A stretch of DNA of 38,184 nt from a virus. Its lineage: Duplodnaviria; Caudoviricetes. The translations under genes and the position numbers were made by a program. The first letter of the stretch is position 1; every line of letters starts with the position of its first letter. The notes under the pieces are model-generated. The model saw only the letters and a list, made by a program, of their open reading frames with translations, ran no database searches and was not told where the DNA came from. Location: the IMG/VR virus record IMGVR_UViG_3300009111_000010, positions 1-38,184 of that record; one strand, written 5' to 3'. Shown in pieces: positions 1,621 to 26,772 of this stretch.

Positions 1621-1798
1621 CTTCTATCCTTTGTGAACACCCGCATCGTTGGTGTCGCCACTTGGCCAAGGCCGCACGGGCAAGCTGGTTAATCTCATGC
1701 GGCTCTTTGGCACTAGCACACTGGCGCATCGCCAGCTTATAACCCATGATGAAACCCATCTCTTCCTTGTACCGCATTTCCTCGGCTACGCTAGGCAT
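1598..1798 (-). CDS. Hypothetical protein (66 aa)
   Basis: ATG 1798 (MPSVAEEMRYKEE...) overlaps the TerL stop and the ORF fills the gap. Confidence 0.55.
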   Translation of the reverse strand: MPSVAEEMRYKEEMGFIMGYKLAMRQCASAKEPHEINQLARAALAKWRHQRCGCSQRIEDGAQVPA

Positions 1799-3345
1799 TA
1801 CACCCCCGTCCACATACCAGCGCGGACTTGCTCGCGCCGTAGATTCACCCGCCACGGCTTCCTGGAAAGCGCCTCCATGGGCGCACTAACCGCGCCCGTG
1901 CGGTCGCCATGCCGCTGGTAGAAGTACCGAAGGCAGGCTATCATGTCGTCGTCCCGTGTCACCACGTCCTGCTTCGTGTCCTTGTACGCTCCCTGCGAAT
2001 TGCGCCAGTCGTCCCACACGTGCTTGAGAAAGTTCGCCGCGAGCGTGGGACAGTCCGTCGTGACTTGTAAGGAAGGAATCTCTGTCCGGGGGGACACTTT
2101 GAGCGCCCCATGGATCTGATTGTACCCTGCCCACTTGTTCCTCTTGAATGCCTTGGTAAAGTTGAGCCCATGCCCTGCAAACATCTTGAGGATCGAAGCC
2201 CCTGTGCCGCGTTCCATCTCCTCTGCGGAGTCGTCTATGATGCGCCCGGTGATCTTTACACTGGTGCGCTCGCTGTACTCGCCGTAAAGTTCCCGGTGCC
2301 GCGCCTCTTTCTGGAGAATCGCATGCGCGACATCCTCAATCGTTATCAGCTTCTTGTCAAAGAGTTCGTCATACGCTACTGCGTACTCGCCCTCGGGGTC
2401 GGTGGCGATCCACAATACCGCAACCGGCTTCCGTGGGTGCGGGTCCACCATGCAGTACCTCTGCCAGAAGGGCGGGATTCTACCGGGCTTGACGTAGAAG
2501 GGGGGCTCCGGCCGCCATTCAGAAAAGACACGACCCACAAGATACTTGGGATTGCCCAGGATACGTGCTTCGAATTCAGCAGGGTCCAGGTCAGCGATGA
2601 ACTCATCAATCGCCTCTTTCGTCATCGGGCCAAAAGGCGGGCCGTTGTTGTAGATCGAATACTGGAAATGCTCCAGACGCTTGCCCGGCCCGCACTGTGG
2701 CAGCAAGATGTCCCAGATCCATGGCTCTGAAAGCGGTGTCAACGCCATCCAGAAGATACCGTGGTAGTCCATCAGTCCCCTGCGCGCCGAGATGAAAAGA
2801 TCATACGGGGGTGGCTCGTCAAACGACACCCAATGGCCCTTCGTACCTTCTTGTACCTCCGTGTCCTGCTTGTATGCGCGCAGGTATATTACCGAGCCGT
2901 TGTCCATGTCGATGCGCTCTGGGTAGCCCCTATAGCCCTTCTTGATCTTGTACGTCCCCAGTGGCGCCCATCTCTTGAACTCCGGCACTAGGACTTCTTC
3001 GATGTTCTTCATCTCATGGGCGAACATCCTGCCTACGTTCGGCACAGGCATCGGGCGTCCAGAGCCCAAATACACTATGCGCCTGGGGTCGGTTTCCTCA
3101 AGCCATGGCCGATAGCCCAGCGCACAAGAGATCGCCTCGGTGATCTCGCCTGCGGTCTTGCCGCTGCGGTTACTACCCGTGCACACCCTACCCGAAGCCC
3201 TGGAGTAGTGGAATGGTTCCTGGTTAGGGTTGGGTATGTAATGGGCGATGGGGTTTGCTTCGTGGGCGTTCTCCAGCCTTTGCAAAGCCTCTTCGAGTTG
3301 TAGTAACTCCTCGTAGATCGCCTGTCGGGCTGGATTACGCGCCAC
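1798..3345 (-). CDS. terL: Terminase large subunit
   Basis: PNQEPFH Q-motif, Walker A GSNRSGKT, Walker B WVSFDEPP, coupling motif ALTP, nuclease acidic motifs MVDPHP and DDDMIACLRY; adjacent to portal. Confidence 0.95.
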   Translation of the reverse strand: MARNPARQAIYEELLQLEEALQRLENAHEANPIAHYIPNPNQEPFHYSRASGRVCTGSNRSGKTAGEITEAISCALGYRPWLEETDPRRIVYLGSGRPMPVPNVGRMFAHEMKNIEEVLVPEFKRWAPLGTYKIKKGYRGYPERIDMDNGSVIYLRAYKQDTEVQEGTKGHWVSFDEPPPYDLFISARRGLMDYHGIFWMALTPLSEPWIWDILLPQCGPGKRLEHFQYSIYNNGPPFGPMTKEAIDEFIADLDPAEFEARILGNPKYLVGRVFSEWRPEPPFYVKPGRIPPFWQRYCMVDPHPRKPVAVLWIATDPEGEYAVAYDELFDKKLITIEDVAHAILQKEARHRELYGEYSERTSVKITGRIIDDSAEEMERGTGASILKMFAGHGLNFTKAFKRNKWAGYNQIHGALKVSPRTEIPSLQVTTDCPTLAANFLKHVWDDWRNSQGAYKDTKQDVVTRDDDMIACLRYFYQRHGDRTGAVSAPMEALSRKPWRVNLRREQVRAGMWTGV

Positions 3346-4030: not shown

Positions 4031-4198
4031 CTAGACGCGGGGCTTCACCATGTGCTGTGGCTTACGCTTGCCGCCACTTTCCTTCTGCATCCACGCCTTG
4101 ACAGACGTGTTGCCTTGCTTCATCTTGGCGACACCGATCTCTGCAATCGGATTCGAGTCTGCGGAGTTGAATTTGCCTGTGCATTTAGGAAGTGCCAT
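4031..4198 (-). CDS. Small basic hypothetical protein (55 aa)
   Basis: Manual translation MALPKCTGKFNSADSNPIAEIGVAKMKQG...VKPRV*; SD AGGAG upstream; below the ORF-track cutoff. Confidence 0.6.
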   Translation of the reverse strand: MALPKCTGKFNSADSNPIAEIGVAKMKQGNTSVKAWMQKESGGKRKPQHMVKPRV

Positions 4199-5066
4199 CT
4201 GTCTCCTCGCTAAAAGAAGTCCCCGCCGCCGAGACGCCCTTTTCTTCTGCGGCGCTCTCTATTTCAGTATAAGCGGCGGGGCTCTCTATGAGTGGACTTG
4301 CCCCATGGCCGTCCGATTCCCCGACTGCGGGAACGAATGTAGCCCTGCCAAGGGCACCGCCGTCCCCGCCTTCGGAGACATCATCACAATCTTCTGGTCG
4401 TTCTTCTGCTTCTTGCCCTGTGCGGTCGGCGTGCCCGTCACTGGACCTGCGGGCGGGTGCCCGCCGCCGTGCCCCGGCGGGGGTGCCTGCGATACATGAA
4501 TTCCCATCCTTTACCTCCAGTACTTGCGCTTCAACAGACTTGAGCTTATCAAGCATGCCTGACGGCATATCTACTTGCAAAAACGTAAGGCGCTCTACAC
4601 GCCCCTTGATCGACTCCATCAACGTCTCGATGTTCGTCCGAGACGCTACCTTGCCCCCGCGAGCCGCCGAGTCGTCCACCCATGTTTCTAGGTCTTGCGC
4701 ACGGTCGCCCATCACCTTGGCCTTGTCTACGAGAATACCCGCTAAGACGCCGCGCTGCTGTACAGACGACTGCTTAAGCGCGGTAGTGTCTATCGTCTCC
4801 AGGACGCAGATCGCCTTTTGTGCCAGATACTCAGAGTACGCCCGGGCGCGTTGCGCGCGTGAGGACATCAAGGCGTGACGCATGTTGGCGTCACCGGACT
4901 GCAGCGAAGCCAGATATTTCCGTACCGTCTCGACGTGCAGGCCGATCTCCCGGGCGATTTCCTTCGGCCGCTTGCCCAGGCCAGTCATGGTCCATATGGC
5001 CTCGACCTGCTCCGGCCTCAGGGCGGAAGGCTGGAAGGTCTGTGCGAGGACAGGAGGAGCTGCCAT
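4185..5066 (-). CDS. HTH DNA-binding protein, probable terminase small subunit
   Basis: N-terminal HTH (GKRPKEIAREIGLHVETVRKYL), helical segment QRGVLAGILVDKAKVM, position upstream of terL; SD AGGAG. Confidence 0.6.
   Translation of the reverse strand: MAAPPVLAQTFQPSALRPEQVEAIWTMTGLGKRPKEIAREIGLHVETVRKYLASLQSGDANMRHALMSSRAQRARAYSEYLAQKAICVLETIDTTALKQSSVQQRGVLAGILVDKAKVMGDRAQDLETWVDDSAARGGKVASRTNIETLMESIKGRVERLTFLQVDMPSGMLDKLKSVEAQVLEVKDGNSCIAGTPAGARRRAPARRSSDGHADRTGQEAEERPEDCDDVSEGGDGGALGRATFVPAVGESDGHGASPLIESPAAYTEIESAAEEKGVSAAGTSFSEETDGTS
4286..4507 (-). CDS. Small Pro/Gly-rich protein nested out of frame in the 3' part of the TerS-like ORF
   Basis: Strong SD GGAGGT just upstream of ATG 4507; 73 aa. 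Confidence 0.45.
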   Translation of the reverse strand: MGIHVSQAPPPGHGGGHPPAGPVTGTPTAQGKKQKNDQKIVMMSPKAGTAVPLAGLHSFPQSGNRTAMGQVHS

Positions 5067-5082
5067 ACTTGGAAGTAGTCTC

Positions 5083-5394
5083 CTAGCGAATGTAGATCGT
5101 GCAAGTCAGGGTGGCTGCGCTGACACCAAAAAGCGCCCGACGCTTGATCCACAGGCCGTTCTTGAGCGGGCCTGTACCCCCTAGCGGAAACGTCTGCGCA
5201 GCGTACGTCTTCAGGTACGTTTCCAAAATAACACTGCCGGAAGCGTCATACGCAATGAATGTAGTATTGCCCGTTGTAGACTTATTGCGGACAGAAATCG
5301 CAGTAGGATATACAGACTTGCCTGCTGCTACTTGCGGGGTAGTGTTATTCCCCGTGTCGAAATACCAAGGATTACGTGTCAGTCTATCAGCCAT
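5083..5394 (-). CDS. Small beta-rich protein, possibly virion decoration
   Basis: Start re-called at ATG 5394 (MADRLTRNPWYFD...), SD GAGGA; 103 aa. Confidence 0.65.
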   Translation of the reverse strand: MADRLTRNPWYFDTGNNTTPQVAAGKSVYPTAISVRNKSTTGNTTFIAYDASGSVILETYLKTYAAQTFPLGGTGPLKNGLWIKRRALFGVSAATLTCTIYIR

Positions 5395-5395
5395 T

Positions 5396-5992
5396 TCAGT
5401 TCCTCGAAGCCGTAAACCACGGGCTGTCCGCCCGCCCAGCAACTGCACTATCTACGCTAAGCCACGTGTCTGTGGCTAAACTCACAACAACACGCGGGGT
5501 AACGGTTGCTGTAACTTGTACGCCGTTCACATAAATATAAAAGTCTAGCGTGTCACCGTGCGCTACGCCTGCAGACACAATCTGCAAACTGCACTCAACC
5601 TCTGTACACGCACCTGCGCCTAGAGAAATTGTACCTGACCCGGCTGTAGCGGCTTCGGTTTGCCCGTCGTTGTCGGCTAAAAACGCACCCGTGCCTCCGG
5701 TAAGCCGCTGCGTACAGTCGGCGTCTTCTGTAAGTACCGAAGCCACTGGTATAACTACTGGCTGCCCAACAGCCACCAAAGTCTTCACGCCAGCGTTTAA
5801 GGACCGGTAAAGCTGTACAATGAACGGGGGACCAGACGCCTGTTCTGTATCCAGATTCTGGATGTTGAAGCGCAGCAAGAATGTGGTGTCCGGCGCATAG
5901 ACTATGTTTTGATTCTGCGGAGCAATCCACCCATGTGTGGCCTCGTTGCCACTGTTTTGCCCAAACCTAAACTGTGTCTGTGCTAAAGCCAT
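5396..5992 (-). CDS. Hypothetical beta-sandwich-like protein, possibly structural
   Basis: 198 aa, T/G/A/V-rich, tightly packed in the operon. Confidence 0.65.
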   Translation of the reverse strand: MALAQTQFRFGQNSGNEATHGWIAPQNQNIVYAPDTTFLLRFNIQNLDTEQASGPPFIVQLYRSLNAGVKTLVAVGQPVVIPVASVLTEDADCTQRLTGGTGAFLADNDGQTEAATAGSGTISLGAGACTEVECSLQIVSAGVAHGDTLDFYIYVNGVQVTATVTPRVVVSLATDTWLSVDSAVAGRADSPWFTASRN

Positions 5993-7222
5993 CTAGGCCC
6001 CTACCAGCAAAGGCGCATGCACGCGCGGTGGATTAGGTGTGATGAGGGTTGTATCGGGCCACTTGGCCTGTATCTCCGTCAAGAAGTTCCACGCAAAGAC
6101 CAGCATCGTGGCCTCCCGGCCCAGCGTGTGGGTATCGAATTCTTTACGGGAGATGATGGGTATCCCGGTCCCCGCTTGGTACAAACCCTGCTTGCTGGAA
6201 GTGTCGTCTACGATACAGCAGACTTGGTGCGGCGTCAACCCGCACACATTCGCCATCACCGTGCCCTTCGCGGCTGCACCAATCGCCCCGTCTACAGGGA
6301 ATTCGGCCAGGAGCGACACCAAACGAGCCGGGGTGTACTGGGCAGCGGATAGAAAAGCGTCATACCGTAACCGAGACTCCCTTTCTCGATACGGGGCCAG
6401 TGCGTCGGATGCTGTATCCCGATTGCACCACACGCGCAACGACCCTCCGTGTATGGGGAGTTCTTCCACTTCGTCCACGTAGAAGCCATGTCGGTCCAAA
6501 ACACGGGACAAAGGCCCGGCGAGGATATAGGACAAGTGCTCGTGGTAGATTTGGTCGAATTCCCCAAGCCTAAACGTGTCATAAGCCCATGGAAACTCCA
6601 AAACGAGCAGGCCATGGTGCGCTAAGATGCGCGTACAGGCTTCAAAGAAAGCGTCCCAGTCGTCTGTGTGGGCTAGAACGTTCTGCGCGGTAACGATCTG
6701 GGCCTTTACACCGGATTCCCGGAGCTTCTTGGCCAAATCTGGCGTCCAGAGCGCCTGGATTCCGGTATGCCCGGCTCCTTCGAGCCGCTGTACCTGCGGC
6801 GAAGGGTCTACACCGACGCCATTGAAGCTGCCGATGTCGCAATGGGCCGCGTTGAACAGCGTACCGTCGTTGCAACCGATGTCCAACCACGTAGTAGCCC
6901 CAGAAATGCGCCCCCGGGGCACGCTGCGGAGCCGGGCCTCCACTTTGCGGGCTAGTGTCTGGCACGAACCCCAGAAAGTTTGGGAAACACCCGACTCGTA
7001 AGGGTAGTTTGCGTACAAAAGAGACGGGGAAACGGTGTGAGACAGCTGGATTTGGCCGCAATACGTGCATTCCATGAGGCCCAAGGGGTATCGCGGCGCG
7101 GCAATGGCCCCGGCACGTGAGGAAAACAGCGCGTTTGCCAGCGGTAAGTCCCCAAATCCGGTCAGGACTGCGAGATTGTGCCCCCCACACGCCCTGCAGG
7201 TACGTCTCTCTACACAATCCAC
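5993..7222 (-). CDS. SAM-dependent NDP-hexose C-methyltransferase (TcaB9/TylCIII-like, with N-terminal Zn-binding domain)
   Basis: CRACG...PLAN...YPL..MECTYCGQIQL Zn domain, SAM motif LDIGCNDGTL, NVLAHTDD, FDQIYHEHLSY, HGGSLR, C-terminal GAAAKG, KQGLY..GTGIPI and FAWNF..EI. Confidence 0.9.
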   Translation of the reverse strand: MDCVERRTCRACGGHNLAVLTGFGDLPLANALFSSRAGAIAAPRYPLGLMECTYCGQIQLSHTVSPSLLYANYPYESGVSQTFWGSCQTLARKVEARLRSVPRGRISGATTWLDIGCNDGTLFNAAHCDIGSFNGVGVDPSPQVQRLEGAGHTGIQALWTPDLAKKLRESGVKAQIVTAQNVLAHTDDWDAFFEACTRILAHHGLLVLEFPWAYDTFRLGEFDQIYHEHLSYILAGPLSRVLDRHGFYVDEVEELPIHGGSLRVWCNRDTASDALAPYRERESRLRYDAFLSAAQYTPARLVSLLAEFPVDGAIGAAAKGTVMANVCGLTPHQVCCIVDDTSSKQGLYQAGTGIPIISRKEFDTHTLGREATMLVFAWNFLTEIQAKWPDTTLITPNPPRVHAPLLVGA

Positions 7223-7225
7223 GCC

Positions 7226-7438
7226 CTATTCCTCCTCTTTCTGCACCCGCCGCCCCAGGTAAAAACCAATTTGTGGCTTGCTGCGCTTGCGCCGAGACTG
7301 TCCACGCTTGTCCGGCCACCCCTCTAACCACTTATCCGTCATTCTGTCGCTGTCCCACAGTGGGTTATCGAAGTCTATACGGTGTGTTTCAGCCCCTTCC
7401 TGCGGGCCAAGGTACGGTAGAACACGAATCTTGGGCAC
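7226..7438 (-). CDS. Hypothetical protein (70 aa), first gene of the late operon
   Basis: GTG start with GGGGGA SD; abuts the methyltransferase gene. Confidence 0.55.
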   Translation of the reverse strand: MPKIRVLPYLGPQEGAETHRIDFDNPLWDSDRMTDKWLEGWPDKRGQSRRKRSKPQIGFYLGRRVQKEEE

Positions 7439-7519
7439 TTGTCCCCCAAAAGCGAGGTTGTCATAGGCGAGGAGTTCGATACAGGGGGTGTCCTCTCCCC
7501 CCTCTACCTATTTCGATAG

Positions 7520-7572
7520 CTGGAAATGGGGTGAGATTCACAAGAGTTGCAATTATTTTACTTTTTTGTTTT
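7520..7572 (-). promoter_or_regulatory. Candidate late-operon promoter
   Basis: On the minus strand an A-tract (AAAACAAAAAAGTAAAATAA) is followed by TTGCAA (7547-7552); there is no convincing -10. Confidence 0.3.
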
Positions 7573-7695
7573 CCGGGATATTGTCCAGCCTACCCTCTGT
7601 CGTCGGTTCGGGCGCGCGCGTGCCCCCGATACCCCCACCCCTGGCACAACACAAACGAGTTGTCCCACCCCTTGTGGTATCGTGCGGCCCCGCGA

Positions 7696-7723
7696 GCTTG
7701 ACATAATGCTAATTATGCGCCAT
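7696..7723 (-). other. dif-like XerC/XerD recombination site (28 bp)
   Basis: Minus strand ATGGCGCATAA-TTAGCA-TTATGTCAAGC vs E. coli dif GGTGCGCATAA-TGTATA-TTATGTTAAAT: 11-6-11 architecture, 8/11 match in each arm; intergenic. Confidence 0.75.
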
Positions 7724-7848
7724 TCGTACGCGAGGGTTGTAGCGTAATGCGTTGCGCTGCAATGGGTTAGTGCAATCGAGGCATCGGCGCGTGCTGTGCG
7801 CGCGCATTTTATCCGCTTATTGACACGGCGGCGTGGCCCTGGACCATT

Positions 7849-7867
7849 TACTTGTATCATACAAGTA
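7849..7867. promoter_or_regulatory. Perfect 9-1-9 palindrome, candidate operator
   Basis: TACTTGTAT-C-ATACAAGTA, intergenic, downstream of a TTGACA at 7820-7825. Confidence 0.5.
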
Positions 7868-7906
7868 TCTCATGCGACCCCTTGAAACAGGCCCCCAGAG
7901 TGTAGG

Positions 7907-7945
7907 CAAGCAAACGGCCCCTGCTAGTTTCCCAGCAAGGGGCCG
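7907..7945 (-). terminator. Intrinsic terminator of the AAA/VWA operon
   Basis: Minus strand CGGCCCCTTGCTGG-GAAA-CTAGCAGGGGCCG followed by TTTGCTTG; GNRA loop; just after the last gene of the operon. Confidence 0.75.
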
Positions 7946-7969
7946 CAGACTAGCCTATGGAAACGTGCG

Positions 7970-8080
7970 CTATGGACTAGCGCGGTAGCCTAGCAGGAAC
8001 AGGACAACAGGAACCAGCAGCAATGCCGCAAGGCCAACGGTCAACAGGCCCCAAACTACCAAGCGGGCTAGGCTATGCAT
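7970..8080 (-). CDS. Small membrane protein (36 aa)
   Basis: MHSLARLVVWGLLTVGLAALLLVPVVLFLLGYRASP*; SD AAGGAG; one hydrophobic helix. Confidence 0.6.
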   Translation of the reverse strand: MHSLARLVVWGLLTVGLAALLLVPVVLFLLGYRASP

Positions 8081-19641: not shown

Positions 19642-20470
19642 CCTAGTACGCCAGGTGCTTGATGGGGTAGACGCCGACTGCAAGGCCCGGGCTACACCCT
19701 ACAAGCGTGACTACTTCCGCGCCTCTGAGGCGGGTAAGTGCGGTAGACAGATCCTGCATGGGATGTTCGGCTCGACGCCGCTCCCCTTCGCGGTGCAGGG
19801 GAAGCTGGTGGTTGAGTCGGGCGACCTGCACCACTCCGCGACCCGCGCCCGCCTGCGCAAGTTTGGTATCCAGGTGGAGGGTGAAGAAGAGGATTACATC
19901 TGGTCCAGAGAGCTGGACGGCAAGGAGGCGTACAAGATCAAGGCCCGTATTGACGGGCGTGTTAGACTGCGGGCCAGCGGTAAGGGTGTGTTGAAGGACA
20001 AGACCCATGCGCTGTTGGAGGTCAAGTCCTTCTCCGTCTACTTCGAGAAGGGCTTCGCGAAGGCGGTTGCGGCTGAGGCCGAGGAGGATGCCGATGGATA
20101 CCTGTGGCCTCGCTCGGAGTGGTCGGCCCAGGTCATCTGGCCTGACTACATGGCACAGACTCAGATCAGCCTGGAAATCTGTGGTCTGGACGTGGCCTAT
20201 TTTATTCCTGTATTCCGTGACAGTGGTTGGCTGGGTCTTAGCGGGCGTGGACTCGTTATCCCACGCTCTCAAGACTATATCAATCGTATACTGTCTCGTC
20301 TGGATAACCTGTATCGCTATTATATGGCGGAGGAGTTGGTCGAGCCCGAGTACCAACCCAACTCCCGGGAGTGCGGATTCTGCAGCTACTGGGGGGACTG
20401 TTGGGGGGAGCGACTTGGGATACCCCAAAAGAGGATGGGGGGTGATAAATACGCCGAGTTATCCGGTTAG
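19625..20470 (+). CDS. Cas4-like PD-(D/E)xK exonuclease
   Basis: RASEAGKCGRQ, G...H, ARIDG, LLEVKS, Q..I, C-terminal ECGFCSYWGDC (1+3 Cys Fe-S pattern). Confidence 0.85.
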   Translation: MTLTYDLVRQVLDGVDADCKARATPYKRDYFRASEAGKCGRQILHGMFGSTPLPFAVQGKLVVESGDLHHSATRARLRKFGIQVEGEEEDYIWSRELDGKEAYKIKARIDGRVRLRASGKGVLKDKTHALLEVKSFSVYFEKGFAKAVAAEAEEDADGYLWPRSEWSAQVIWPDYMAQTQISLEICGLDVAYFIPVFRDSGWLGLSGRGLVIPRSQDYINRILSRLDNLYRYYMAEELVEPEYQPNSRECGFCSYWGDCWGERLGIPQKRMGGDKYAELSG

Positions 20471-20918
20471 CTACTGTGTTATGTGTCACTACCCTACGTG
20501 GGAGTGCCAGTGTAATCGTGGATTGCCCGACTCCGGCAAGCGCCGTCACTTCCCTACCGGCTCCCAGCGCGACACACGTGAAGGCAAGGGGCGCTTCGAC
20601 CTCCTCCCACCGCTGTTTCTCATCCTCTTGGCCAAGCACTTTGAGAGGGGAGGGGCCAAGTATGAGGACAGGAACTGGGAGAAGGGCCAGCCGATGTCCA
20701 CATACCTCGACTCGGCCTTAAGGCATCTCGTCAAGTACACCTGGTACGGGGCAGACAACGAGGACCATCTGGTGGCGGCGGCGTGGAATCTCGCAGCCAT
20801 GGTGGAGACACGCGAGCGCGCCAAGCTGGGGGTGCTGCCCAAGGAACTCGCGGACGTCCCTATCCCCAGAGGCGGGGGTGTTCTGAAGCATGACGTCTTT
20901 GAGGAGGGTGGGCTTTGA
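20442..20918 (+). CDS. dATP/dGTP diphosphohydrolase domain protein (DUF5664-like)
   Basis: F.TGSQRD...GKGRFDLLPP...LAKHFERGGAKY.DRNWEKG.P...YLDSALRHL...EDHL.AAAWN; start re-called at GTG 20442. Confidence 0.85.
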   Translation: MINTPSYPVSYCVMCHYPTWECQCNRGLPDSGKRRHFPTGSQRDTREGKGRFDLLPPLFLILLAKHFERGGAKYEDRNWEKGQPMSTYLDSALRHLVKYTWYGADNEDHLVAAAWNLAAMVETRERAKLGVLPKELADVPIPRGGGVLKHDVFEEGGL

Positions 20919-21516: not shown

Positions 21517-22786
21517 ACATCTAGTCCTGCGCGCTTTGATGGACCCCAAGGAGTACGCTACGTACAAGGGGATGTTGAAGCCTGAGTACTGGTCCTCCCC
21601 GGTCACTCGGAATATCTACAAGACAATCTGTAAGTTGCAGGATACAAGTAGTGGCGGCGATGGCGAGATCAGCTTTGATGTACTAACTGCTGCATTGGAA
21701 CAGGCGGGGCACAGCGGTAACGACTACAGCTATATCATGGAGATCATCGGCGGGCAGACTCCGCACAATGCGGGCCTGCGGGGTGTGGTGACGCGGCATG
21801 TGCAGACCCAAATGCTTCTCACCTGTGGGGAGGAGATTGGCAGGTATGCATCCGGGGCCGCTGTTGATCTCCATGATCTTGCTGCTAAGGTGGCAGAGGC
21901 TGCTGACTTCGATCTGGTACAGGGGGTGGTGGTTGACTACGGCACACATGCTGGAGTATATGATGACGGGGCTCTGGCCGAGGGTGCCGTGCCACTCGGG
22001 TTTGCCTTGGTGGTGGATGAATACTTTAAGGGTGGGATCGCGCCCGGCGAACTTCTGTCCTTTTTGTCATGGCCCGGTGGTGGTAAAACGACTTTTTTGG
22101 TCAACGCCGGGGCAGGGGCCTTCCTCGCCCACAAGCGAGTCCTCCACGTCACCACAGAAATCCACGCCCCTCGGGTAGCCAGTAGGTACGATTCCTGTAT
22201 CGCACCCTTCTGCGCCCCCGGGGAGGAGTTTAAGGATTTCGTCAAGTCCCTGGTGGCGGCAGGTAGTAGGCTGTGGATCAAGGACGTGTCTGATACCGCA
22301 GTAACGGCGGCGGCGCTGGAGTCTTTCATCCGGCGTGAACTCCCCGACCGACCACACGTGCTTGTGGTGGACTACGCGGACGAACTCCTGTCCAGCCGCA
22401 AGTACGAGGAGAAGAGGCATGAGCTGGCCCTTGTCTACAAGGAACTGCGACAGCTTGCTGCAAGACTTGGCATTCCGATCTTTACTGCCACGCAGGCTAC
22501 ACGTGAGGCTCTTAAGAAGCGTAGTGCGGAGCTGGAAGACGTGGCCGAATCCTTCGGCATTGCACGAGTGGCGGACCATCTCTTGGCCATTAACCCACAG
22601 GAGAATGTAGGCGAGGTAATTCTCAAAGTAATCAAGTCGCGGCGCAGGTCGTCTAGGCCGCCGTGGTTGTTGGCGGTGGACTATGATGCGTGTAGAGTAA
22701 CCGATGCCCTCGCCGGGGGTACGGTGGATGCTGGTGTGTGGGGTGGACCCAGGCCTCGGAATGACGGGGGCGGTGGTACTGGATGA
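21503..22786 (+). CDS. DnaB-like (SF4) replicative helicase
   Basis: GGIAPGEL, Walker A PGGGKT, VLHVTTE, VVDYAD, LRQLA..LGIPIFTATQ..R, AESFG..RVAD, KSR. Confidence 0.92.
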   Translation: MLRTEHLVLRALMDPKEYATYKGMLKPEYWSSPVTRNIYKTICKLQDTSSGGDGEISFDVLTAALEQAGHSGNDYSYIMEIIGGQTPHNAGLRGVVTRHVQTQMLLTCGEEIGRYASGAAVDLHDLAAKVAEAADFDLVQGVVVDYGTHAGVYDDGALAEGAVPLGFALVVDEYFKGGIAPGELLSFLSWPGGGKTTFLVNAGAGAFLAHKRVLHVTTEIHAPRVASRYDSCIAPFCAPGEEFKDFVKSLVAAGSRLWIKDVSDTAVTAAALESFIRRELPDRPHVLVVDYADELLSSRKYEEKRHELALVYKELRQLAARLGIPIFTATQATREALKKRSAELEDVAESFGIARVADHLLAINPQENVGEVILKVIKSRRRSSRPPWLLAVDYDACRVTDALAGGTVDAGVWGGPRPRNDGGGGTG

Positions 22787-23258
22787 GGACTCGAATCTCA
22801 AGGCATGGCAGGTGTGGACTTCCAAACCGTTGGGCCATATACTACCACGATGTTTAGGGATGGGGTACGATGTCACGCTCTGGATAGCTGAGGTCTGCGG
22901 GACAGGCCCGCTGCAGCTGGTCATCGAGCACCCCATCTTCTCGAAGAATGCGCTCGGCTTCGCCAAGCAGGTGCGACTGATGCACACGCTGGAGGAGTTC
23001 TTGGTGGAGCAAGGGATAGAAGACGGCATGTGGTCTGGAGGAAGGATCATTGAGGTCCTTCCCCACGGGCCGCGCAAATCATTAGGGCTCAAGGCATCGG
23101 CCCCGAAGTCCCTCATCACGGACCTCTTCCGCACAGACTACGGGGCTGTAGTGGGGGACTTGCCCAGGGTGCAGATGGAAGCGTTAGGGGATGCGTGGGC
23201 TATTGCGTCGTGTGTGTCGAAGCCGGACCTCTGGCATCAAGTACTGGAGTTTGAGTGA
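22728..23258 (+). CDS. RuvC-like Holliday junction resolvase
   Basis: MLVCGVDPGLGMTGAVVL, LVIEHP, C-terminal ALGDAWAIA. Confidence 0.8.
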   Translation: MLVCGVDPGLGMTGAVVLDEDSNLKAWQVWTSKPLGHILPRCLGMGYDVTLWIAEVCGTGPLQLVIEHPIFSKNALGFAKQVRLMHTLEEFLVEQGIEDGMWSGGRIIEVLPHGPRKSLGLKASAPKSLITDLFRTDYGAVVGDLPRVQMEALGDAWAIASCVSKPDLWHQVLEFE

Positions 23259-23331: not shown

Positions 23332-24033
23332 ATGAGCTACCACATTTACATCCTAGGCTACAAGCAGCCGGGTGCCTTGCAGGCGTGCGAGTCGGCGGTA
23401 CGGGCTAGCTTGGTGCCGGGGACATTCTGTGTAGAAGTCGTGGACAACACCGCCGAGAACGTGAACATCCACAAGCGGTGGAATGACTCTTGGAAAGTGT
23501 CCGGGGCAGAGTGGATGGTGTATCTGACTGCGGATACATTACCCCAGGGAGGATGGTTGCATGAGATCCACGCCGCGCGGGAAGTCTGCGGCCCACAGTA
23601 CGCGGCGTTCGGTCCTTCTACTAATTCCTGCTATAATGAACAGGCAGGACGGGAGCCCGCTATCGTGGCCCAAGCCCCCGCTGGGTCCGTTGTCCCAGGT
23701 ATATTACTCCCAGGGTTTTGTATGGCAGTACGACGGGACGCACTGGTGGCGCTCGGAGGATTCCGTGAAGACTTTACCTTCTACGGCGGGGACGTGGACT
23801 TCATGTACCGTCTCCGCATGGCAGGATACGAAACAGGGTGGGTGGTGCGCTCCTTCGTATACCACGAATGGGGTGGATCAGCCAAGAAGCAGGGGAAAGA
23901 GTGGTATGAAAAAGCCCGTGAAGAAGGCAACTCCCGTCTCCAAGCCGCCGTCCAAGCGTACGAAGCCGATCCCGGCCTCTGGTATTGGACTGGTACGGGA
24001 TGTGTACGCAAAGCTGATGGTGGTCAGGGCTGA
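23332..24033 (+). CDS. Glycosyltransferase family 2
   Basis: VEVVDN, N...WN, YLTADT (DxD-like), GFCMAVRRDALVALGGFREDF.FYGGDVDF.YRLRMAGY, VYHEWGGS. Confidence 0.85.
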   Translation: MSYHIYILGYKQPGALQACESAVRASLVPGTFCVEVVDNTAENVNIHKRWNDSWKVSGAEWMVYLTADTLPQGGWLHEIHAAREVCGPQYAAFGPSTNSCYNEQAGREPAIVAQAPAGSVVPGILLPGFCMAVRRDALVALGGFREDFTFYGGDVDFMYRLRMAGYETGWVVRSFVYHEWGGSAKKQGKEWYEKAREEGNSRLQAAVQAYEADPGLWYWTGTGCVRKADGGQG

Positions 24034-26138: not shown

Positions 26139-26425
26139 TTACTTGGTTGGGGGCACGTTGAGTTTGGCAACTACATCCTCAGTTGTAGGTAGATGTCGGT
26201 CGCGCTTACTCCACTTGAGTGCTTTAACTTCTTTTGCTATCTGTATACGACGTTCCTTGTACTTTCTAACTTTACCGCCAAATAGTTCCGCAAACTTTAA
26301 GCACATTCGTGGGTCGGTATTAGTTACAGACATCTTACAACCAGAACTACAGTCTGGGTTGACATACACACCAATGCTGCCTTCTCCATCAAGTGCTCCT
26401 GCAGCCCATGCGTAGCTAGCTAGAC
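26139..26425 (-). pseudogene. Truncated LAGLIDADG homing endonuclease remnant
   Basis: YAWAAGALDGEGSIGV...SVTNTD...FAELFGGKV; the central part is missing and there is no clear start codon. Confidence 0.75.
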
Positions 26426-26772
26426 GGTGGGACGATAAGTTTCGCAAAAGCGTCCTCCTCAGTAATTAGAAAGTAAAGTTCGTATGCGCTCTCATCGTCA
26501 GGCGCGTCAGGACGCTCAAGTAGTCGCATGGAGACGGAGTTCCACCGGCCCAAGATAATCCAATCTCCCGGCTTGTAATGCTCTACTGCAGGACCAACTG
26601 CTCCAACGTATGCTACATAGTCTAATCCCTGCGCGACATCAGGAATAATAATTCCGCCTTTAGTACGGTCTTTTGGCTTCCGTCTGCGCACTAGCATTCT
26701 ATTGCCATGCGGAATGATATTTGATAACGATACCGGAATGTCTACACTGTCCCAGCCTTCTTGAAGTGCCAT
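26416..26772 (-). CDS. groES: Co-chaperonin GroES-like protein
   Basis: IIPHGNRMLVRR...RTKGGIIIPD mobile loop, VGAVGPAV...KPGDWII, LITEEDAFAKL. Confidence 0.85.
   Translation of the reverse strand: MALQEGWDSVDIPVSLSNIIPHGNRMLVRRRKPKDRTKGGIIIPDVAQGLDYVAYVGAVGPAVEHYKPGDWIILGRWNSVSMRLLERPDAPDDESAYELYFLITEEDAFAKLIVPPSS

Follow-up and report, generated by a model that had tools for sequence, protein, structure and literature searches.

Site-specific recombination between loxP sites circularises the DNA of phage P1 or resolves its dimers, and the recombinase, Cre, is encoded by the phage itself. The cer site of ColE1 and the psi site of pSC101 are recombined by the XerC and XerD proteins of the host and depend on an accessory region of ~200 bp, with an ArgR or ArcA box, next to the XerC arm. 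Published users of Xer recombination include inoviruses, double jelly-roll phages, satellites, islands and plasmids. The IMEXs CTXphi, VGJphi and TLCphi (PMC5357621) and the dif-type double jelly-roll prophages (PMC12715192) have no integrase and integrate through a dif-like site, while plasmid prophages with XerCD-like recombinases of their own are described in PMC8026635. Large replicons such as R27 carry one 28-bp 11-6-11 site (xrs) without accessory sequence, and six-base-spacer sites of this kind require FtsK on large plasmids (PMC11724359). In a search of mainly open-access literature, including 10.1101/633727, we found no report of a tailed phage that relies on host XerCD at a site adjacent to its terminase genes, in agreement with the initial annotation of the DNA studied here, which had called Xer use poorly described for tailed phages.

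The stretch analysed, referred to below as the window, is 38,184 nucleotides of tailed-phage DNA that is present in runs of freshwater and wetland metagenomes. On its minus strand it carries a 28-bp dif-like site at 7696..7723, composed of a predicted XerC-binding arm (7713..7723), a non-canonical 6-bp central region, TTAGCA (7707..7712), and a predicted XerD-binding arm (7696..7706). Identity to canonical dif, for which we used the site in locus L004 (the same as the E. coli K12 row in Table 1 of PMC2731167), is 8/11 in the XerC arm, 2/6 in the spacer and 8/11 in the XerD arm. The initial annotation had described an intergenic minus-strand 28-mer with 11-6-11 architecture, each arm matching E. 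coli dif at 8/11 positions, and this description holds. As in the rules given for XerCD recombination sites (xrs/dif-like) in PMC11724359, two 11-bp arms enclose a 6-bp centre and the inner 5 bp are palindromic. The 28-mer was read as intergenic, within the 850 bp of non-coding sequence that precede the first gene of the late operon, and terL is 4.4 kb downstream of it; the one long ORF examined over the site (7558-7860) had no PHROG or Pfam family match. No sigma-70 promoter was called at the site; on the plus strand a perfect -35 hexamer falls within the XerD arm.

It is both the only match to the core pattern and the sole 4-6-4 palindromic core in the window. The 12-base core by itself is weak proof, since with one mismatch allowed it was matched by 14 of 100 shuffles and is not significant alone. 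Scored with an arm matrix, the 28-mer reached 25.5 bits, compared with 10.3 bits for the runner-up in the window, and none of 1000 sequences from an order-2 Markov null attained this score. Because the matrix was trained on matches to a pattern drawn from the 28-mer, this test is partly circular, and we placed the weight on conservation. Support independent of the matrix comes from conservation in a relative, locus L122, and from the positions of the matches that the pattern left unconstrained. The inner nine bases of the XerD arm occur 90 times in the predicted-dif table in supplement 2 of PMC3025954. Judged by its architecture and conservation, the 28-mer is a genuine Xer-type site under selection, whose mode of action is probably that of a plasmid xrs.

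The likeness to plasmid xrs lies in the single 11-6-11 site per replicon, the palindromic inner 5 bp, the free central region and the prospect of host XerCD acting on the element's own DNA. Unlike the R27-type sites, this one is in a tailed phage of ~46-51 kb that has its own polymerase and in which no partition genes were found; it sits at the head of the packaging operon, and the KOPS motifs of the window do not converge on it (4 toward the site and 10 away, p 0.18). It has the length of chromosomal dif of beta- and gamma-proteobacteria (PMC2731167), 8/11 identity to E. coli in each arm and a single intergenic copy, but its spacer matches E. coli at 2/6, it has phage genes on both sides rather than a chromosome terminus, and it lacks KOPS convergence. 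The IMEXs and the dif-type double jelly-roll prophages resemble it in being phages that carry a dif-like site, with no integrase in the part of this phage that was sequenced; those elements are non-tailed and integrating, whereas here the phage is tailed, has one site and no integrated copy was seen. CTX has two inverted attP sites ~90 nt apart that fold back, and here the site is single. In TLC the XerD arm is degenerate, the centre resembles dif and XafT is present, while this site has near-canonical arms and a divergent centre, and DUF3653 was not found in the window. The VGJ type agrees with host dif in the XerC-side part of its centre (PMC5357621); the XerC-side centre bases here match E. 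coli at 1/3 and Dechloromonas at 2/3 (PMC2731167). The site has neither the CTX nor the TLC arrangement. Like cer and psi, it would be served by host XerCD on an extrachromosomal element, but the 60 bp by its XerC arm are not conserved with L122. P1 and the plasmid prophages encode their recombinase and here the enzyme would be the host's, the role in circularisation or dimer resolution being alike.

Relatives were collected by terL alignment, which gave 80 viral and 80 metagenome loci; 112 of the 160 were scanned, and 48 duplicate-looking or short metagenome loci were left out. Besides the window's own record (L202), only L122 (terL identity 64%) had a site above 20 bits. The L122 site (1769-1796) has 24 of its 28 bases in common with the window, the entire spacer included, while the flanks are identical at the random level of 14/60 and 14/60. 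When the two upstream non-coding regions were compared by blastn, the site was the top match (E 3e-4). In L122, too, it occupies the gap that precedes the terS-like gene, but with other neighbours (the genes behind the L122 portal are by inspection methyltransferase-like or unassigned) and with its orientation relative to terL flipped. No reading frame common to both phages runs across the site, and Phage_integrase had no match in the 15 kb of L122. A kept site between random flanks in flipped orientation argues against promoter or coding constraint; selection apart from flanks and coding is observed in one relative.

The initial annotation had looked to conservation of the 28-mer amid diverging flanks, and this was found in L122 and not in more distant relatives. 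There was no convincing site in 31 other terL-relative loci (mostly ~40% identity, partly redundant, each with at least 4.4 kb upstream) or in six near-complete genomes scanned whole. As most relatives are without the site and 6 of 7 near-complete family records are without an integrase, the family can do without the site. By sequence comparison, then, the site is a selected yet lineage-restricted addition. Locus L001 (terL 66%) stops 1153 bases upstream of terL, which is too little flank to inform. No cultured phage was a DNA relative of positions 5000-12000, searches for close relatives by the polymerase and by a 412-aa protein of the window returned nothing, and the close-clade terL alignment gave no further close relative. 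The site is also absent from the cultured phages Jasmine, phiM5, MEP301 and HTVC010P (first 3 kb). Five candidates in distant relatives were rejected: L166 reads as a sigma-70 promoter, and L162, L265, L274 and G010 scored 13-18 bits, about or under the 99th percentile of the null (16.5), and lack the core.

The window opens inside the portal gene and has no terminal overlap. Near-complete family members measure 48-54 kb and an identical terS-like protein occurs on a 45,896-base contig, which together indicate that ~8-13 kb are missing from the window; the record's own completeness figure of 30% implies a larger missing part. The statement in the initial annotation that the window has no recombinase gene is correct for these 38 kb, in which a six-frame search gave no Phage_integrase and no Resolvase match; given the start in the portal, the lack of terminal overlap and the 45,896-base contig, the absence of an integrase holds for this length only. 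No match to FtsK-gamma or to DUF3653, which we take to be XafT, was found in the window.

The phage is probably a podovirus, as there was no tape-measure match and the nearest cultured terminase is that of podovirus Jasmine (27%). PHROG and Pfam assign terL (1798..3345, minus strand; phrog_2, E 1e-15), a C-methyltransferase, a MoxR-type ATPase, DNA polymerase, SSB, a Cas4-like nuclease, DnaB, a weak resolvase, an amidase and beta-helix proteins. The putative terminase small subunit (4185..5066, minus strand) has an N-terminal HTH and 39% identity to L122 2577-3257, and its name is from position only. The C-methyltransferase (5993..7222, minus strand), which in L122 lies behind the portal, is the first late-operon gene here. 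On the other side the gap is bordered by the MoxR-type AAA ATPase (9314-10087, minus strand) and its 412-aa partner, the pair covering 8073..10087; it is not found at the corresponding place in L122. A Holliday-junction-resolvase-like gene (22704..23258, plus strand) has weak PHROG matches (E 6e-4) and homologues in 4 of 6 distant relatives. By its gene content the phage looks lytic, with replication genes of lytic type, and no partition gene was found in the window by PHROG or Pfam; these give no support to the plasmid-like or carrier state raised by the initial annotation.

Several other genes were recorded. The 412-aa partner, directly beside the gap, has a DxSxS motif and no Pfam family. 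A dATP/dGTP diphosphohydrolase domain (20007-20918), a glycosyltransferase (23332-24033) and the sugar-type C-methyltransferase (5993-7222) could form a DNA or virion modification pathway. A GroES-like co-chaperonin gene (26416-26772) lies in the structural/lysis arm. The 336-aa ORF 11289-12299 sits in a low-GC island (44%), contains an XRE-like stretch recognised by eye, has no family match and is possibly a recent acquisition. Five exact 18-bp tandem repeats at 11101-11196, which follow a ribosome-binding-like sequence in frame and lie close to the cumulative GC-skew minimum, may be a coding repeat or origin iterons.

Among bacterial and archaeal species genomes, 185,579 in total, the exact string of arms and spacer occurred once, in a search that is blind to hosts with other arm letters. 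The occurrence is on contig C10 of the Xanthobacteraceae genome G005, a conjugative-plasmid contig with TrwC, TrwB and VirB genes, and the chromosomal-type dif of the same genome has a spacer that differs from TTAGCA. The arm pattern was present in 190 of 401 genomes of the phylum of G005 as compared with 4 control matches, a contrast by which the pattern marks real dif sites. Among the 150 listed of the 216 arm-pattern matches, contig C10 alone had the TTAGCA spacer. A relaxed 15-mer gave 3 matches in the 401 genomes and 5 control matches, with a clear chromosomal dif in none; the spacer matches in G200 and G319 were rejected as chance, lying ~100 kb off the skew switch or having poor arms in a genome that has a canonical dif. 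Spacers one base from TTAGCA are listed for Dechloromonas aromatica dif (PMC2731167, Table 1) and for a Burkholderia third chromosome (PMC2731167, supplement). Comparison of the site with phage and plasmid sequences by short blastn yielded nothing above chance level. The initial annotation had suggested host prediction from the arms, and this failed because the XerD arm is common to several phyla. Many of the sampled genomes contain inverted dif-like pairs ~60-110 bp apart, often combining a chromosomal-type spacer with a different one (G123, G195, G187, G251, G135, G159, G095, G219, G127, G083, G115, G071, G239 and G223).

The gap that contains the site (7223..8072) heads the late, packaging operon and may hold the genome end or packaging start. 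In Jasmine, the phage with the closest cultured terminase, a 1330-bp terminal repeat stops just before the late operon and terL is 4.7 kb from the end (PMC5513430). One contig of run X6 over 7589-7980 has a depth of 11.1, versus 3.0-5.5 in seven other listed X6 pieces, or two to three times that of its neighbours, a hint from a single low-depth run in which contig depth is unfit to rank genome parts. Of the contig ends, 11/57 upstream and 1/62 downstream fell within non-coding sequence at least 300 bp long, a test confounded by the large gap being on the upstream side only. A site within the terminal redundancy, as for circularisation of the P1 type, is hinted at by the analogy with Jasmine and, weakly, by depth and contig ends; Jasmine and phiM5 are themselves terminally repeated phages that lack such a site. 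Between the site and the late operon, a GC-rich stretch at 7594..7619 (minus strand; alignment columns 480-510) is co-linear with L122 and is a candidate packaging signal. On the far side of the site, an 11-mer at 7822..7832 (plus strand) is common to L122 (1711-1721) in the same orientation relative to terL. Further exact copies lie at 10416-10426 and 10438-10448, all three in non-coding or early regions, and with one mismatch allowed there are 6 matches versus 1.4 expected. The 11-mer is possibly a phage regulatory motif.

We regard it as slightly more probable than not that XerC and XerD of the host bind the site to recombine one copy of the phage DNA with another, and not to integrate the phage. 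The spacer is non-canonical, the exact string in the genomes searched is found on a plasmid contig only, sites of this kind are internal to viral contigs instead of bordering them, and the contigs showed no phage-host junction; recombination among phage copies fits these observations better. Of the two uses of host XerCD advanced in the initial annotation, the resolution of genome dimers therefore fits, and integration at chromosomal dif is less favoured. Host XerC and XerD would bind both arms, and strand exchange between two phage copies would go to completion, as both carry one spacer; since the spacers of phage copies are always equal, full exchange would be possible between phages and would be blocked at a host dif of other spacer, following the spacer-matching rules in section 11 of PMC5357621. 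If the gap holds the genome end and the site is part of a terminal repeat, the entering genome would be closed into a circle by a crossover between the two end copies, and multimers of that circle would be reduced to monomers at the one site that remains. If instead the site is outside the terminal repeat, it would serve for multimer resolution, like plasmid xrs. The weakest step is activation, in which host FtsK would act without KOPS guidance: FtsK is needed at such sites, yet the KOPS are unconverged and no activator gene was found. Alternatively, a Holliday junction made by XerC might be completed by replication or by a phage resolvase, a task that the Holliday-junction-resolvase-like gene could perform; for CTX, PMC5357621 describes a XerC-made junction that is finished through replication. 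Against self-recombination, the spacer is conserved 6/6 when self-use alone should permit drift, and the conservation evidence is from one relative.

The kept spacer amid saturated flanks is what would be expected if the site were an IMEX-type attP, at which XerCD integrates the phage at a host chromosomal dif with TTAGCA or nearly so as its spacer, and the flipped orientation could then reflect two independent captures from one host site. Chromosomal spacers one base off do exist, as in Dechloromonas and Burkholderia, the window has no integrase, and the XRE-like stretch in ORF 11289-12299 could also be read in this direction. We nevertheless consider integration unlikely. The exact string has no chromosomal match in the genomes searched (one with other arm letters would be missed), the relaxed 15-mer did no better than its control, there is neither a second inverted site nor DUF3653, and the replication genes are of lytic type. 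The joining of phage and host at this site, which the initial annotation had offered as a check, was also not seen: contigs of three covering runs (X1, X6 and X3) span the site and none of the joints or loose ends listed falls there, though the window may itself stem from X1 and X3, and a junction present in few molecules would be lost from contigs. Runs X5, X8 and X9 had no contig over 7200-8200, which speaks neither for nor against a junction.

It is also conceivable, at a lower probability, that XerC and XerD bind the site without recombining it, as an end cap, an FtsK stop or an aid to packaging or localisation. Non-recombining roles of XerD at dif-like sites are described for Bacillus and Staphylococcus (PMC9226527), and placement at the head of the packaging operon, with neither an activator nor KOPS convergence, would suit such a role; but the two arms and their 6-bp separation are retained, and 73 of 77 unique viral sites end their spacer in A, as for a cleavable site. 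We give little credence to an operator or promoter of another protein with incidental resemblance to dif. The palindromic core, the -35 hexamer in the XerD arm and the HTH proteins of the phage speak for it, and are opposed by the uncalled sigma-70 promoter, the flip in L122, the single copy and outer arms that are asymmetric as in dif. The string also recurs on a plasmid and in viral groups without protein match to the window. Least probable is a chance match or unused relic: shuffled sequence does match the core and most of the family is without the site, but the retention of 24/28 bases between random flanks, and the failure of any of the null sequences to reach the score, are difficult to reconcile with chance.

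Self-recombination, if it is the function of the site, may extend to other tailed phages. The arm pattern was found in ~350 viral stretches; the 120 of these that were examined gave 121 sites with 57 spacers, the spacer being canonical at 28 sites. Canonical-spacer sites lay within 200 bp of a contig end in 11 of 28 cases (1.1 expected), like prophage borders, while for the other spacers the count was 6 of 93 (3.6 expected). In the 37 annotated loci, taken from 80 flanked loci, mostly picked for non-canonical spacers and partly redundant, a terminase gene was at most 3 kb from the site in 25 (23 terL and 2 terS). All but one of the 23 terL-linked sites were 25-2455 bp upstream of terL, and relative to terL 6 of the 23 had the same and 17 the opposite orientation. 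Phage_integrase was absent from 20 of 26 longer site-bearing records, and from 12 of the 16 that were at least 90% complete. The TTAGCA spacer occurs in 18 viral contigs of seven groups, L122 included; in two of these groups the outer arms are poor and the matches could be due to chance.

Our reading of this survey is tentative: many unrelated tailed phages without a recombinase may have, within the terminal repeat, an Xer site with a private spacer, at which host XerC and XerD circularise the incoming genome. If true, this would be a host-enzyme version of P1 Cre/loxP in which the private spacer bars chromosome entry, and terminally repeated phages would have a route to circularise or monomerise without a recombinase. 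Host XerCD would then be a lytic-cycle host factor for tailed phages, Xer hijacking would reach beyond filamentous, small, tailless phages and plasmids, and a dif-like site in a phage would alone be no proof of integration. Three further observations were made on these contigs. Two of them (L007, site at 3001-3023, and L024) have their own integrase plus a non-canonical dif-like site at one terL end, which suggests a role other than integration. The cultured phage MEP301 (L350; PMC8024684), with terL 67% to the site-bearing L008 group, has no site and a resolvase-domain gene of its own, a possible swap of borrowed and own recombinase. The same TTAGCA spacer occurs in a family of viral contigs (L285, L288, L289, L291, L295, L296 and L297) that are 28-118 kb long with 66% GC; Phage_integrase matched 0 of 5 records tested, and the three contigs scanned with Pfam have large polyvalent-protein genes.
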